Source: a virus. Taken from it: a stretch of DNA of 64,000 nt. Positions within the stretch are counted from its first letter, which is position 1. Each line of letters begins with the position of its first letter. The translations under genes and the position numbers were made by a program. The notes under the pieces are model-generated. The model was given only the letters and a program-made list of their open reading frames with translations. It had not been told where the DNA came from and searched no databases. The stretch lies in the IMG/VR virus record IMGVR_UViG_3300028844_004984; one strand, written 5' to 3'. This document shows positions 12,126 through 28,966 of this stretch, piece after piece.

Positions 12126-13004
12126 ATGCAGTTAGTAGATACAGTAGGTAATACACCACTATTGAAGTTCCCACTTGATGGTGGAACAATATGGGGTAAG
12201 GCAGAGTTTGTGAATCCTGGTGGTTCAGTTAAAGATAGACCAGTAGCATATATTCTCAAGCAGGCACTATGTGATGGTACATTAAAGAAAGGTGATACCA
12301 TCATTGAAGCAACCTCTGGTAATATGGGAATCTCACTATCTATGTTTTGTGCTAATATGGGATTCAATTGTATTATTGTAATGCCATCCAATATGAGTAC
12401 CGAGCGTAAAGTTATGATGAAATCATTTGGGGCAAAACTAATTGAAGTTGATGCTGGTGATTTTGACGGTGCTATTGAGTTGAGAGATAAGATGGCAAAG
12501 GAGAATGGCTATTTTAACTTTAACCAATTCCACAACAAACTCAACATTGCATCACATTGGTACACTACTGGATTTGAGATTTGTAGAGATATAGAATTTG
12601 GTACTCAGGTCGATGCGTTCGTAGCTGGTACAGGTACTGGTGGTACTATTATGGGAGCTGGTAAGTTCCTTAAACAAATGTACGATGATTGTAAGTTAGT
12701 AGCATTGGAGCCAGCAGAATCACCTGTTATGTCTGGTGGTTGCCCTGGTCTGCATGGTATTCAGGGTATTGGTGATGGTAGTAAGTTTCTAGTTGATTTA
12801 GATATCTTAGATAGAATCGAAATCGTATCCACCCAAGAAGCAAAAGATAAGGCAAAAGAATTGGCAAAAGAATTTGGATTATTCATTGGATTTTCCGCTG
12901 CTGCTAACTATCTTGTAGCTGAACGATTGGTTAAGGAAGGGTATGCGAAAAACGTTGTTACGATTCTATGTGATAGAGGAGAACGCTACTTCAGTTGTAT
13001 GTAA
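12126..13004 (+). CDS. cysK: Cysteine synthase (PLP-dependent O-acetylserine sulfhydrylase)
   Basis: GNTPL; NPGGSVKDR (PLP lysine); EATSGN; GTGTGGT; HGIQGIG; DRGERY. Confidence 0.92.
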   Translation: MQLVDTVGNTPLLKFPLDGGTIWGKAEFVNPGGSVKDRPVAYILKQALCDGTLKKGDTIIEATSGNMGISLSMFCANMGFNCIIVMPSNMSTERKVMMKSFGAKLIEVDAGDFDGAIELRDKMAKENGYFNFNQFHNKLNIASHWYTTGFEICRDIEFGTQVDAFVAGTGTGGTIMGAGKFLKQMYDDCKLVALEPAESPVMSGGCPGLHGIQGIGDGSKFLVDLDILDRIEIVSTQEAKDKAKELAKEFGLFIGFSAAANYLVAERLVKEGYAKNVVTILCDRGERYFSCM

Positions 13005-13839: not shown

Positions 13840-13925
13840 GGCCGGATGGTGGAAGTGGTAGACACGACAGACTTAAAATCTGTTTCGCCGAACGGTGAGT
13901 GTGGGTTCGAGTCCCACTCCGGCTA
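13840..13925 (+). tRNA. tRNA-Leu(TAA)
   Basis: Cloverleaf with long variable arm; anticodon arm ACAGA-CT TAA AA-TCTGT; GTTCGAGTC. Confidence 0.92.
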
Positions 13926-13951
13926 CTATAAATAATACAACAATATCTATT

Positions 13952-14086
13952 ATGCTTTATGTACAATATACGATGATTGGTTTGGTAAGTATCGCATTAG
14001 GTTATATGCTTTATGAAATGGTTAAGACTTTCTACTATGAAATAAGAGAATCAATCCGAACTAATCGAAACAACCGAAGGTGGTGA
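13952..14086 (+). CDS. Small membrane protein between tRNAs
   Basis: Single TM segment and a basic tail. Confidence 0.5.
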   Translation: MLYVQYTMIGLVSIALGYMLYEMVKTFYYEIRESIRTNRNNRRW

Positions 14087-14096
14087 TATAATAAAT

Positions 14097-14170
14097 GCAC
14101 CCGTAGCTCAGCTGGATAGAGCAACGCACTTCTAATGCGTAGGTCATAGGTTCGAATCCTATCGGGTGTA
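14097..14170 (+). tRNA. tRNA-Arg(TCT)
   Basis: Cloverleaf; ACGCA-CT TCT AA-TGCGT. Confidence 0.95.
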
Positions 14171-14183
14171 CAAAATTTCTTAT

Positions 14184-14258
14184 GGTGTTTATAGCTCAAT
14201 CGGTTAGAGCGCTGGCTTGTGGAGCCTGAGGTTGTGAGTTCGATTCTCACTAAACACC
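14184..14258 (+). tRNA. tRNA-His(GTG)
   Basis: G-1/C73; anticodon loop TT GTG GA. Confidence 0.9.
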
Positions 14259-14332
14259 CATTGAGTTCTTTGACTTATCGGATTTTTTTTGCGAGTTCTG
14301 CACCTCTACAGATTAAAAGGTGTTTTCAACAT

Positions 14333-14406
14333 GGGAATGTAGCTCAGTTGGTTAGAGCAGGACTCTTATACAGTCAAGGTCATGGGTTCAAGTCCCGTCA
14401 TTCCTA
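14333..14406 (+). tRNA. tRNA-Ile(TAT)
   Basis: Cloverleaf; GACT-CT TAT AC-AGTC; A73. Confidence 0.85.
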
Positions 14407-14411
14407 CAACC

Positions 14412-14485
14412 GACCTCTTAGCTCAGCTGGTTAGAGCATCTCACTTTTAATGAGAGGGTCCTGGGTTCGAGTCCCAGAGGGGTTA
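14412..14485 (+). tRNA. tRNA-Lys(TTT)
   Basis: TCTCA-CT TTT AA-TGAGA. Confidence 0.95.
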
Positions 14486-14488
14486 CTT

Positions 14489-14568
14489 GCCGATGTGGTG
14501 GAATTGGTAGACACGCTAGTTTTAGGCACTAGTTCTTCGGAGTGAGAGTTCGAGTCTCTCCATCGGTA
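14489..14568 (+). tRNA. tRNA-Leu(TAG)
   Basis: CTAGT-TT TAG GC-ACTAG; variable arm. Confidence 0.93.
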
Positions 14569-14573
14569 CATAT

Positions 14574-14648
14574 GCATCCTTAGCTCAGTTGGTTCAGAGC
14601 ATCTCGTTTACACCGAGAAGGTCGTTGGTTCGAACCCAACAGGATGTA
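14574..14648 (+). tRNA. tRNA-Val(TAC)
   Basis: TCTCG-TT TAC AC-CGAGA. Confidence 0.95.
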
Positions 14649-14707
14649 CTTCACTAAATAAATTTCAATATTTATATAATAGTAATAATACTAATAAACA
14701 ATAATTT

Positions 14708-14986
14708 ATGAATTACAAAATCGCAAGAAGATTGTACCAAGCTTTGGAAGCAAAGTACACAGCAGAGATAATGGATGCGAGAGCACGATTATCAGTTTAC
14801 TTCGAATCCTCTGTAGGAATCGGAGAACACCCACAACTTACTGAAGAGATTGACAACTTAGTTGACCAACTCGCAAACGCAACGGATAAATTGGAAACAC
14901 TTTCTAACAACTTCTCAAAGGAGTATGGTAGTGATATTCCAACTACAGTCGTTGACAATGAAAAGAAGGAGTTGATTAACGGGTAG
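14708..14986 (+). CDS. Conserved T4-like phage hypothetical protein (VGIGEHP motif)
   Basis: Motif; preceded by ATATTTAT. Confidence 0.75.
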   Translation: MNYKIARRLYQALEAKYTAEIMDARARLSVYFESSVGIGEHPQLTEEIDNLVDQLANATDKLETLSNNFSKEYGSDIPTTVVDNEKKELING

Positions 14987-15003
14987 GGTGAGTACGACTC
15001 ATC

Positions 15004-15088
15004 GGAAGATTGGCAGAGAGGTCGATTGCACTGGTCTTGAAAACCAGCGTACAGCAATGTACCGTAGGTTCGAATCCTACATCTTCCG
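15004..15088 (+). tRNA. tRNA-Ser(TGA)
   Basis: CTGGT-CT TGA AA-ACCAG; long variable arm; G73. Confidence 0.93.
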
Positions 15089-15090
15089 CA

Positions 15091-15896: not shown

Positions 15897-15939
15897 TAAT
15901 ATTTGGATAATTAAAAAATGTTTTGTATATTTACAATCG

Positions 15940-16194
15940 ATGAAATGGGATACGGTACATATTAGTGATAAGATACACTTTCTGAAGGATGTGATGGATA
16001 ACTCCACACAGGACACAGAGCACGATATGCACATTGTAAACGCATTAATTACAGGTTCTCACAACACCTTTAGTGGTGATATGGGATTTGAAATACAAAT
16101 ACATCATATGAATTATATGAGAGAGTTATGGGATAATCACATCGTTACTCAAAAAGATAGTTCAGTGATTAACAAACTGCGAGAGAAGAGTTAA
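15940..16194 (+). CDS. Hypothetical protein
   Basis: Follows a TTTG/TATATTTA promoter (15903-15933); 3' end overlaps a tRNA-like gene. Confidence 0.6.
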   Translation: MKWDTVHISDKIHFLKDVMDNSTQDTEHDMHIVNALITGSHNTFSGDMGFEIQIHHMNYMRELWDNHIVTQKDSSVINKLREKS

Positions 16195-16250
16195 GAGAAA
16201 CTCGCTACACATCCAGTGTAGAGAAGTTGGGGCAGTTCCAACCTTTCGCT
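16179..16250 (+). tRNA. Non-canonical tRNA-Gly(TCC)-like RNA, copy 1
   Basis: Complete cloverleaf stems, U73; T-loop GGCAGTT, no D-loop GG, A33. Confidence 0.75.
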
Positions 16251-16255
16251 CAACT

Positions 16256-16327
16256 GCGGGAAAAGAGTTAAGAGAAACTCGCCGTACTTCCAGTACGGAG
16301 ATGGTGGGGCAGTTCCACCTTCCCGCT
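16256..16327 (+). tRNA. Non-canonical tRNA-Gly(TCC)-like RNA, copy 2
   Basis: GCGGGAA/TTCCCGC acceptor; CCGTA-CT TCC AG-TACGG; T-loop GGCAGTT. Confidence 0.8.
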
Positions 16328-16506: not shown

Positions 16507-16682
16507 ATCCATCAGATAAAGAAGTAGAACAAGCAATTGATAGAACACAAATTCTCTATAACTCAATTGTGGAGAATGTTGTACGTCATAGTGTATATAA
16601 GCTGGATAAGGGGTTTGCTAAACACATAGATACTGCGTTAGAATCTCTTTCAAAAGCAAACACAATTATAAGTAATGTATAG
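16503..16682 (+). CDS. Hypothetical protein
   Basis: ORF in the operon. Confidence 0.6.
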   Translation: MNPSDKEVEQAIDRTQILYNSIVENVVRHSVYKLDKGFAKHIDTALESLSKANTIISNV

Positions 16683-17076
16683 TAAAGGGATGTTAGCTGG
16701 TAACTTTGATGTGATACATCCTGGTTACATTAAGATGTTTAAAGAATGTAAAGAGGTGTGTGATAGGTTGATAGTATTCCTACATACAGACCCATCCATT
16801 GAGCGACCAGATAAACTCAAACCCATATTGAGTGTGGATGAAAGAGTAGAAGTTTTAGAATCGTTGCGGTATGTTGATGATATACAAACATATACATATG
16901 AGAATGAGTTGTATAAGTTGATTGAACTTAACTCTCCTGATATTAGATTCTTAGGTGATGATTACAAAGGTAAGACTTATACTGGCTACGAACTGAATAC
17001 ACCCATCCACTATCTAAATCGAAATCACGGTTGGAGTACCACCAAATTTAAAACCCTAATTGCACAATCACTATGA
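16675..17076 (+). CDS. Cytidylyltransferase (TagD/RfaE-like HxGH family)
   Basis: AGNFDVIHPGY; ER...LRYVD; GDDY; STT. Confidence 0.88.
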   Translation: MYSKGMLAGNFDVIHPGYIKMFKECKEVCDRLIVFLHTDPSIERPDKLKPILSVDERVEVLESLRYVDDIQTYTYENELYKLIELNSPDIRFLGDDYKGKTYTGYELNTPIHYLNRNHGWSTTKFKTLIAQSL

Positions 17077-17444
17077 AGTTAGCAGTAATCGCACATGACG
17101 GTAAGAAGGCAGATATGGTATCGTTCGTAATGAAACGATTACCATTCTTCAAACGTAAGGATGTACAGCTCGTAGGAACTGGTACTACTGGTACTATGAT
17201 TATCCATGCAGGTCTAAAGGTGGAGAGAGTAGCATCAGGCCCAATGGGTGGTGATGCAGAAATTGGTGCGATGGTGACCAGAGGTGAGATTGATGGGGTA
17301 ATCTTCTTTAGAGACCCATTAGATAAACACCCGCACGATGTAGATATCTCAATGTTGATGAGGTTGTGTGATGTACACGAAGTACCATTAGCTACCAATT
17401 ACAAATCAGCACATATTATGATTAAGTATTTTGAAAAAAAATGA
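17073..17444 (+). CDS. mgsA: Methylglyoxal synthase
   Basis: IAHDGKK; TGTTG; SGPMGGD; FFRDP...PHDVD; PLATN. Confidence 0.95.
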   Translation: MKLAVIAHDGKKADMVSFVMKRLPFFKRKDVQLVGTGTTGTMIIHAGLKVERVASGPMGGDAEIGAMVTRGEIDGVIFFRDPLDKHPHDVDISMLMRLCDVHEVPLATNYKSAHIMIKYFEKK

Positions 17445-26166: not shown

Positions 26167-27069
26167 ATGGGACACTTAGGATATGCGTGTATCAATATGA
26201 CGCTAGGTAAAAAAGGTATTACTACCAATCGTAGTATGATTAAACGAACCTTCTTACAAAAAGGTATTCCCTATGCTTCTGAACTCAGTATTCAGAACGT
26301 AAGGGATTTGATTGAGATTATCAAATGGAATGAGCAGAACGATGTTAAGTTCTTTCGTATGAGTTCCAATGTATTTCCGTGGAGTTCGGAGTATCCACTA
26401 TCATCACTACCACATTATGACCGTATCAAAAACTTATTGGCTGGTGCTGGTAATTTGGTGGATAAGTATGGTCATCGTATCACATCCCATCCTGGCCCAT
26501 TCAATGTGCTAGTATCACCCAATGAGAACGTAGTTAAGAACACTATTACAGACCTTTCGATACATGGTGAGGTCTTTGATATGATGGGTCTATCTCGTAC
26601 TCCCTACAACAAGCTGAACATTCATTGTAATGGTGTGTATGGTGATAAGATATCTGCTATGGATAGATTCTGTAAGAACTTTGAGAGGTTGCCTGAATCA
26701 GTTCAGACTCGTTTGACTGTAGAGAATGATGATAAAGCATCTATGTACTCAGTAAAAGATTTGATGTACATTCACGAACGAATTGGTATTCCTATTGTGT
26801 TTGACTACCATCACCACAAATTTTGTACGGGTGGCTTGACTGAAGAAGAAGCTCTCAAACTTGCTGCTAGTACTTGGGGTGATATCAAACCAGTTGTTCA
26901 TTACTCTGAGAGTAAAGCATTACATGAGAACAATGAATCTATTAAACCACAAGCACATTCAGATTACATCTCTGAAACAATTAATACATATGGTTTAGAT
27001 GTTGATATAATGATAGAAGCTAAAGCTAAAGAACTGACCCTTTTGGAGTATCGAAAGGTCAGCGCATAA
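26167..27069 (+). CDS. uvsE: UV damage endonuclease (UvsE/UVDE)
   Basis: LGYACIN; FRMSS; HPGPF; ENDDK; FDYHHH; HYSES; AHSDY; MIEAKAKE. Confidence 0.95.
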   Translation: MGHLGYACINMTLGKKGITTNRSMIKRTFLQKGIPYASELSIQNVRDLIEIIKWNEQNDVKFFRMSSNVFPWSSEYPLSSLPHYDRIKNLLAGAGNLVDKYGHRITSHPGPFNVLVSPNENVVKNTITDLSIHGEVFDMMGLSRTPYNKLNIHCNGVYGDKISAMDRFCKNFERLPESVQTRLTVENDDKASMYSVKDLMYIHERIGIPIVFDYHHHKFCTGGLTEEEALKLAASTWGDIKPVVHYSESKALHENNESIKPQAHSDYISETINTYGLDVDIMIEAKAKELTLLEYRKVSA

Positions 27070-28324: not shown

Positions 28325-28966
28325 ATGAGTGATTTATATAATGAGGGAACTACTACAACGGATAATTCAACAAAACCATTGTATGTAGATGAAGCTACGA
28401 AAGATAATGAGAAGTGGTTTCAGGAGTTCAGAGAGTTTGATTATGGTATCGATATTAACAATAATGTTATACTCATACAGGACGAGGTAGCTATGGGGTT
28501 GTTGTTCGATGTAGTATCGAAGGTAAGGCTACTTAGAAAGATTAATTCAGAATTAAAAGCAATTACACTACTCTTAAATTCACCTGGTGGTGATGTTGTA
28601 GAAACGCTAGGGTTAATCGACTATATGAGAACCCTAAAAGAAAACGATGGTATTGTAACTAATATTGTATGTAGGGGTTCGGCAATGTCGGCAGCAGCTC
28701 TATTGTTAGCAGCTGGAACTGGTCTTAGGGCAGCATCTAAACACTCTAAGATTATGGTACATCAACTTTCATCATTTAGTGCCGGCAAACTATCTGATAT
28801 AAAATCAAACGCAAAGTTTGCCGAACAGCTCGAAGATGATTGTAATTCAATTATGGAAGAGTGTACAAAAAAAGATAAGAAGTGGTGGGAAGAGAATCAG
28901 CAAAACGATTACTTCCTGTCAGCACAAGATGCATTAGAATTAGGTATAATAGATAAAATAGTTTAA
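28325..28966 (+). CDS. clpP: ClpP-like serine protease
   Basis: NSPGG; AMSAA (Ser); IMVHQ (His); D.FLSA.DA...GIID. Confidence 0.88.
   Translation: MSDLYNEGTTTTDNSTKPLYVDEATKDNEKWFQEFREFDYGIDINNNVILIQDEVAMGLLFDVVSKVRLLRKINSELKAITLLLNSPGGDVVETLGLIDYMRTLKENDGIVTNIVCRGSAMSAAALLLAAGTGLRAASKHSKIMVHQLSSFSAGKLSDIKSNAKFAEQLEDDCNSIMEECTKKDKKWWEENQQNDYFLSAQDALELGIIDKIV

Follow-up and report, generated by a model that had tools for sequence, protein, structure and literature searches.

A phage-only family of rewired tRNA-Gly(UCC)-like RNAs co-occurs with Mom genes and may donate glycine for DNA hypermodification

Several glycine tRNAs or tRNA-like elements have been connected with chemistry outside translation. 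Staphylococcus aureus and S. epidermidis carry the non-proteogenic tRNAGly species NP1-NP3, which combine a normal glycyl-tRNA synthetase (GlyRS) identity set with unusual D and T loops and probably withhold glycine from the ribosome, saving it for a transferase that acts on peptidoglycan. The Mom enzyme of phage Mu takes glycine from Gly-tRNAGly and attaches it to the N6 position of adenines in double-stranded DNA (Silva et al. 2026, PMC13219725). All Escherichia coli tRNAGly isoacceptors serve Mu Mom, which probably reads mainly the acceptor end of the tRNA; that report assumed the host tRNA pool as the supply and did not mention phage-encoded tRNAs (PMC13219725). In Dehalococcoides, mom homologues on ssrA genomic islands have also been found to contain a tRNA-Gly-like "pseudo-tRNA" (McMurdie et al. 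2011, PMC3146451). Here we analysed two tandem tRNA-Gly(UCC)-like genes, called look-alikes below, in a 64,000-nucleotide (nt) stretch of viral DNA (IMG/VR record IMGVR_UViG_3300028844_004984; the whole stretch is referred to as the window). We hold it somewhat better than an even bet, with a probability of roughly 0.55, that they are two paralogous genes for a private, ribosome-avoiding, non-proteogenic glycine donor for Mom-type DNA hypermodification.

The preliminary description of this DNA had reported tandem cloverleaves at 16179-16327, and the present analysis bore this out. The plus-strand segment is a direct repeat of two 72-nt units with a period of 77 nt and 81% identity, and the minimum-energy structure of each copy is a cloverleaf (-26.1 and -33.1 kcal/mol; z = -3.5 and -4.3). 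Standard tRNA numbering for both copies was taken from the family alignment described below. As had been noted before, the acceptor, anticodon and T stems of the two copies differ by compensatory changes, and both copies carry G1-C72, C2-G71, G3-C70, U73, C35 and C36, together with A8/U14, the D-loop UAAGAGAA and the T-loop GGCAGUU; the identity elements and A8/U14 also hold family-wide. The expectation that tRNA finders would overlook the genes was confirmed as well. ARAGORN called 8 canonical tRNAs in the window and neither look-alike, and the Rfam tRNA model (RF00005), which recovered the same 8 tRNAs at 56-73 bits, left the look-alikes unmatched even at E <= 10. No other Rfam family matched them at gathering or permissive thresholds. 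The look-alikes share with canonical phage tRNA-Gly(UCC), as in T4-like phages and on contigs L081 and L084, the start of the acceptor stem, the discriminator, the anticodon and the position in a tRNA cluster. The canonical form differs in its U8, G18G19, U33, A38 and TTCGAUU T-loop, and the Rfam model gives it 57 bits.

Homologues were collected by two exact-pattern scans of IMG/VR, followed by covariance-model searches. The results showed a family of 80 homologous copies with 56 distinct full-length sequences on about 55 uncultured viral contigs, mostly as tandem pairs, with some single or triple copies. In the family alignment 99.4% of the stem cells were paired, all four cloverleaf stems, with 7 bp in the acceptor, 4 in the D, 5 in the anticodon and 5 in the T stem, were present and covarying, and 14 pairs had double changes; none of 500 shuffles reached the observed covariation score, and no slid register came close. 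The family-wide structure is thus far beyond chance, and this is a real RNA under selection. The earlier view that the differences between the two copies reflect selection and not decay was therefore fully supported, and a decaying pseudogene is excluded by the covariation together with loops that are invariant across the 56 sequences. Outside these viral contigs the RNA was not found. Two pattern scans of 185,579 prokaryotic species genomes gave 0 matches and then 1 chance match, which the covariance model rejected; blastn with a 701-nt region gave no match among GenBank phages; and the RNA was not found in the whole records of Microcystis phage Mel-JY01 and Flavobacterium phage immuto, which by baseplate identity (50.6% and 43%) are the nearest cultured relatives of the window. 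The RNA-bearing genomes are those of large aquatic phages and form one broad clade with 44-62% baseplate identity.

The conserved positions define a tertiary core that differs from that of standard tRNAs. Invariant in 56/56 sequences were G1-C72, C2-G71, G3-C70, U73 and C74 at the acceptor and 3' end; A8, U13, U14, G19, A21, A22, C35, C36, A37, A44, G45 and C56 in the core and loops; and G49-C65, U51-A63 and G53-C61 in the T stem. A18, G54, G55 and G58 were each present in at least 54/56, and the other stem positions covaried. The loops, for which a search of related phages had been suggested, do recur there, with core loop positions invariant or at least 54/56. The canonical set (U8, A14, G18 G19, T54 Psi55 C56 and A58) is not present in the family, and three tertiary pairs are swapped relative to a standard tRNA: U8-A14 to A8-U14, G18-Psi55 to A18-G55, and T54-A58 to G54-G58. 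The D-loop had been described as lacking G18G19. A GG dinucleotide is indeed absent, but in standard numbering the loop reads A18 G19, so that G19 is kept and the G19-C56 pair is still possible (56/56). This possible pair had not been noticed before, nor had A33 in copy 1 or the possible C32-G38 pair. Mutual information further revealed a new contact between positions 15 and 59 (A-U 41, G-C 4, U-A 4, A.A 7), which does not exist in standard tRNAs.

Sister copies preserve intermediate states. The copy at L005:4962-5035 has A18 G19 with a UGCGAUU T-loop, that is, G55 together with U54 and A58, and the copy at L071:5445-5518, which encodes its CCA, combines GGG in the D-loop and an anticodon loop of 8 nt with the canonical T-loop UUCAAAU. 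Because such intermediates occur in sister copies, the family looks derived from tRNA-Gly(UCC) by stepwise, paired changes. Two family members were seen with 8-nt anticodon loops, L071:5445-5518 (CAUUCCAG) and L033:1-51 (UAUUCCAA); they could be evolutionary intermediates or four-base readers.

We next consider charging and end-processing. The bacterial GlyRS identity set consists of G1-C72, C2-G71, G3-C70, U73, C35 and C36. All of it is invariant in 56/56 family members, while the neighbouring stem pairs covary, and from this the look-alikes appear chargeable with glycine. N73-C74-(A/U), never a complete CCA, is encoded at the end of every one of the window's 8 canonical tRNAs and of both look-alikes. 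Such a uniform 3' flank suggests a common maturation route and points to normal tRNA end-processing and CCA completion for the look-alikes too.

Several features suggest that these RNAs were not built for decoding. U33 is near-universal in tRNAs, yet it is replaced in 63% of the distinct sequences; among the 56, position 33 is A in 33 (59%, including copy 1), U in 21, C in 1 and G in 1. A Watson-Crick pair between positions 32 and 38 is possible in every case (CG 56, UA 2) and would close the anticodon loop to 5 nt, so that the ordinary arrangement of U33 in a 7-nt loop free of such a pair is not what the family shows. The affinity for EF-Tu was estimated with the additive sequence-based model of Schrader and Uhlenbeck (Table 2 of PMC3239215), the values being predicted and not measured. 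For the T stem the model gave -10.1 - 0.4 + 0 + 1.0 = -9.5 kcal/mol (49-65 GC, 50-64 UA or GC, 51-63 UA); G49-C65 and U51-A63 are fixed, and 50-64 varies solely among EF-Tu-neutral pairs. Bacterial tRNAGly bodies average -10.8 kcal/mol, being tight because glycine itself binds EF-Tu poorly, and staphylococcal non-proteogenic bodies lie at -9.6 to -9.7 kcal/mol (PMC7826273). The look-alikes are thus predicted to bind EF-Tu weakly, about 1.3 kcal/mol below normal for glycine. Taken together, the loop features and the T-stem prediction argue against decoding.

The competing explanation here is a working tRNA-Gly(UCC) (ACC in some relatives) that decodes GGA/GGG, or all GGN, with an odd but functional core; we consider it unlikely. 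The fixed G49-C65 and U51-A63 pairs with a neutral 50-64 pair could mean a tuned EF-Tu affinity, G19-C56 is kept, and C32 with an unmodified U34 lets a Mycoplasma tRNAGly read all four glycine codons. The replaced U33, the pairable 32-38, the occasional 8-nt loops and the weaker predicted affinity speak against it, and no amino acid depends more on a tight tRNA body than glycine. GGA makes up just 23% of the glycine codons in the window (GGT 60%), compared with 41-61% usage for the A-ending codons served by canonical phage tRNAs. A canonical tRNA-Gly(UCC) coexists with the look-alike in some phages; canonical tRNA-Gly(GCC) is present in many look-alike phages and canonical (UCC) in two. Finally, G003 (L080; 252,603 bp, 100% complete) retains the look-alike as a stand-alone gene with zero canonical tRNAs by RF00005.

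The single copy in G003, a phage of jumbo size, has its own promoter-like motif and a downstream hairpin. The two canonical-looking tRNA-Gly(UCC) genes in look-alike-bearing phages, L081:6482-6552 (-) and L084:1379-1450 (+), score 57 bits and have two anticodon-stem mismatches and a G50-U64 pair; they may be decaying. They were dropped as a comparator for the EF-Tu pairs on account of the mismatched anticodon stem and G50-U64.

Mom was searched as PF25680 in whole viral records, and contigs at least 70% complete served as the RNA-bearing test set. All 13 of these 13 contigs carried PF25680 genes, 2-3 per contig, with E values of 1e-35 to 1e-50. In contrast, Mom was found in 0/12 controls (10 unrelated viral contigs, immuto and Mel-JY01), and the RNA was likewise absent from all 12. 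The co-occurrence includes G003, which has this RNA and two Mom genes with no canonical tRNA. Mel-JY01, at 50.6% baseplate identity, is closer to the window than the RNA- and Mom-positive G003 and G008 (44%), yet it lacks both; RNA and Mom were therefore gained or lost jointly at least once in the clade. The phage Mom paralogues aligned over their full length to Mu Mom (PDB 8BV8) with E = 7e-16 and, if chain numbering is offset from native numbering by 9, keep the counterparts of the catalytic residues R111 and S124, so the enzymes look active. In G001 and G002 the Mom genes lie 57-70 kb upstream of the RNA, relative to its orientation, and the RNA-bearing fragments without Mom all span less than 40 kb upstream of the RNA.

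The association was also examined in reverse, with contigs picked by the Mom gene alone. Four near-complete genomes obtained in this way had been missed by the RNA patterns, and 4/4 have genes of tRNA-Gly(UCC) type whose anticodon loops read C-G-U-C-C-A-G or are 8 nt long; in G034 a canonical tRNA-Gly(UCC) stands beside two genes of this type. The incomplete Mom-selected contigs G040 and G042 have a GGGGGCAG T-arm reminiscent of the look-alike family. These results suggest a wider class of non-decoding glycine tRNAs with a common loop signature. The loci L183-L194 (G033-G036, G040, G042, G049) belong to a different Mom-phage lineage with 1-3 tRNA-Gly(UCC)-type genes per tRNA cluster; several of their anticodon loops read C-G-U-C-C-A-G or CAUUCCAG, their elbows are canonical or half-canonical, and in G034 and G042 a normal tRNA-Gly(UCC) with a CUUCCAA loop lies beside the odd ones. 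In the 484-kb phage LR756508.1 only weak Mom-like domains within larger proteins were found, with no RNA pattern match.

The look-alikes had been proposed before as glycine donors for non-ribosomal chemistry, by analogy with the staphylococcal species. The donor role itself is favoured by the Mom co-occurrence, while the cell-wall version of it is not retained: Fem-type transferases (FemAB PF02388, Acetyltransf_6 PF13480) were absent from the three near-complete genomes G001-G003. A Fem-type partner was thus ruled out, and the chemistry is therefore not of the cell-wall type. The analogy holds for the T-stem pairs that set EF-Tu binding, with a predicted -9.5 kcal/mol here against -9.6 to -9.7 (PMC7826273, PMC3239215), and for the altered D and T loops; it fails for the transferase. 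The look-alikes further differ from the staphylococcal tRNAs in being phage-encoded and in the loss of U33, the proposed acceptor is DNA instead of peptidoglycan, and none of the GGCAG T-loop, A8-U14, A18-G55 and the 15-59 pair is the staphylococcal solution. The relatives of the window resemble phage Mu in carrying 2-3 full-length homologues of Mom (PF25680; 8BV8) with the catalytic Arg and Ser, but they place a dedicated non-canonical carrier in the same genome, whereas Mu encodes no tRNA and uses host tRNAGly. The Dehalococcoides locus, likened here by its description, is similar in that a conserved tRNA-Gly-like element accompanies a Mom homologue on a mobile element. That RNA lies in the first 150 bp of mom, unlike the look-alikes, which lie in a tRNA cluster far from Mom.

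A number of observations weigh against a private donor for Mom. The gap of tens of kilobases in the relatives means that there is no operon-level link, and in G001 and G002 the RNA is neither adjacent to a Mom gene nor embedded in one. In the 64-kb window itself tblastn found no Mom (best E = 0.08), and the relatives in its own sub-lineage (baseplate identity of 73% or higher) reach no more than 67 kb, too short to show Mom. The RNA-bearing genomes are one clade, so part of the co-occurrence may be shared ancestry; the copy numbers of RNA and Mom are not one to one; and phage Mu runs Mom without any private tRNA. The EF-Tu estimate is the value of a sequence-based model. The remaining points fit decoding directly. 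Position 34 is U or A only and never G or C, which hints at a codon-reading constraint, and the next three positions, C35, C36 and A37, never vary. The RNAs are found within ordinary tRNA clusters or next to them; in the window they are at the distal end of the cluster, 1.1 kb beyond it, on its strand and with a 3' flank like that of its members. Among the tRNAs of these phages U34 species for four-codon boxes are frequent, and a canonical tRNA-Gly(UCC) is missing from most look-alike phages, so that the look-alike fills this slot in their sets; in the 64-kb window neither ARAGORN nor Rfam found any canonical tRNA-Gly. The lack of Mom in the window, of a long contig in its sub-lineage and of adjacency, together with the relatedness of the genomes, the restricted position 34 and a cluster without tRNA-Gly(UCC), keeps the decoding explanation alive.

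On balance we favour a private glycine donor for Mom. The data show the family, with its structure and invariant positions, its confinement to phages and its genome-level co-occurrence with Mom, while the processing and charging of the RNA, its escape from EF-Tu and the ribosome and its use by Mom are inferred. The look-alikes would be transcribed with the small open reading frame (ORF) upstream and excised like tRNAs, their ends would be completed to CCA, and the host GlyRS would add glycine. The charged RNA would be a poor substrate for EF-Tu and the ribosome through its weak T stem, unconserved U33, 32-38 pairing and rebuilt elbow, and its glycine would thereby stay free for the phage Mom-family GNAT enzymes. 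These may glycylate N6 of adenine in double-stranded phage DNA, and a rearrangement would then give 6-NcmdA, which would shield the phage DNA from host nucleases. A stronger version, in which the rewired elbow (A8-U14, A18-G55, G54-G58 and the 15-59 pair) and the closed anticodon loop turn the RNA into a natural orthogonal tRNA that host GlyRS charges, that EF-Tu, the ribosome and the enzymes modifying U8, U54, U55 and the D-loop fail to see, and for which the phage's own Mom paralogues are specific, is tentative, and we would sooner bet against it than for it.

The look-alikes have lost U8, U33, U54, U55 and the uridines of the D-loop, which are classic sites of recognition or modification, and this could also be read as counter-defence, in which a glycine tRNA was reshaped against tRNA-targeting nucleases or modifying toxins or acts as a decoy for such effectors. 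There is precedent in phage tRNAs whose altered anticodon loops restore translation in the face of tRNA-cleaving defences (PMC10264068, PMC11555353), and the restriction of the family to phages would suit such a role. Several facts make it improbable, and the analysis gave no evidence for a resistant tRNA or for a decoy. The neighbouring phage tRNAs are fully canonical (56-73 bits), a resistant tRNA must still decode and the loop features argue otherwise, and the strict Mom co-occurrence would be left unexplained. We know of no defence system specific to tRNA-Gly(UCC) in Bacteroidota, and none was found in this analysis.

The ORF upstream of copy 1 encodes 84 amino acids, belongs to a family named F0, and has its final five codons and stop codon inside copy 1. 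RNase P cleavage at G1 would strip the stop codon and leave a non-stop mRNA. This arrangement would suit a non-acceptor role, either as a processing or stability signal (RNase P/Z punctuation or an mRNA 3' cap) or as the decaying pseudogene already excluded, and tRNA-like punctuation does occur in other systems. We consider such a role very improbable, since a processing signal has no need for invariant C35, C36, U73 and C74 or for a conserved rewired elbow, and the F0 ORF is missing from many RNA-bearing genomes. It accompanies the RNA at 28/53 loci, directly preceding it in some lineages and directly following it in others. G002 and G003 lack the ORF, which was therefore ruled out as an obligate partner. 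Among 1.8 billion proteins a profile search with F0 gave no more than 27 clusters (50% identity), with divergent homologues located on short contigs. W3, N21, H55, H56, W64, Q71 and D73 are invariant, and the predicted structure is a four-helix bundle (pLDDT 82) with no fold match; no Pfam match was found for the protein. The candidate promoter in front of the ORF would yield a leaderless transcript of F0 and both RNAs. A similar promoter-like motif precedes the stand-alone RNA gene in L080 (G003), and such motifs would fit a Bacteroidota host.

The features of the locus are collected in Table 1. The window is part of a large T4-like myovirus and encodes a baseplate wedge protein, thymidylate synthase and a CobS/T-like ATPase, with a GC content of about 37%. 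Auxiliary genes near the RNAs lie within 12126-13004, 16675-17444, 26167-27069 and 28325-28966; their products are a PALP (pyridoxal phosphate-dependent) enzyme, a small cytidylyltransferase-like protein, an MGS-like domain protein, a UvdE ultraviolet endonuclease and a ClpP-like protease. The segment 15400-15940 has no ORFs and contains the internal direct repeats TATGACCGAATAATCCC (twice, 181 nt apart) and GGGGATAAGGTA (twice), and it also carries a promoter-like motif. The segment has the look of a structured RNA in its own right, for which Rfam at the gathering threshold gave no family.

Table 1. Positions of the two tRNA-Gly-like genes, their parts and the linked features in the window
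Feature	Position	Strand	Details
Cluster of 8 canonical tRNAs	13840..15089	+	Leu-UAA, Arg-UCU, His, Ile-UAU, Lys, Leu-UAG, Val-UAC, Ser-UGA; ARAGORN and Rfam
Candidate Bacteroidota-type promoter	15902..15934	+	TTTG, 21-nt spacer, TATATTTA; about 6 nt before ATG at 15940
84-amino-acid ORF, family F0	15940..16194	+	Small phage-only protein family
tRNA-Gly-like RNA copy 1	16179..16250	+	72 nt, G1 to U73; 103 bits with covariance model R1
Copy 1 acceptor stem	16179-16185 / 16243-16249	+	
Copy 1 A8	16186	+	
Copy 1 D-arm	16188-16203	+	Loop UAAGAGAA
Copy 1 anticodon arm	16205-16221	+	Loop C-A-U-C-C-A-G at 16210-16216; UCC 16212-16214; A33 16211
Copy 1 variable loop		+	AGAA
Copy 1 T-arm	16226-16242	+	T-loop GGCAGUU
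Copy 1 3' flank	16251..16252	+	Encoded C74, then A
tRNA-Gly-like RNA copy 2	16256..16327	+	G1 to U73; 106 bits with model R1
Copy 2 anticodon loop	16287-16293	+	C-U-U-C-C-A-G; UCC 16289-16291
Copy 2 variable loop		+	AGAU
Copy 2 T stem		+	GGUGG/CCACC
Copy 2 C74	16328	+	

Earlier publications cover non-proteogenic tRNAGly, Mom's dependence on a tRNA and one case of a tRNA-Gly-like locus within a mom gene. In the searchable literature we found neither a phage-encoded rewired tRNA-Gly family that tracks Mom from genome to genome nor this tertiary solution. Standard tRNA finders miss the family, and phage annotations therefore overlook it. With three tertiary pairs replaced together, a new 15-59 pair and surviving intermediates, it is a natural experiment in tRNA architecture and a candidate scaffold for orthogonal tRNA engineering. 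If the RNAs do serve Mom, large lytic phages would bring their own glycine supply line for DNA hypermodification, a viral counterpart of the staphylococcal cell-wall tRNAs; and if they proved orthogonal as well, donor and enzyme would form a self-contained pair that separates DNA hypermodification from translation.

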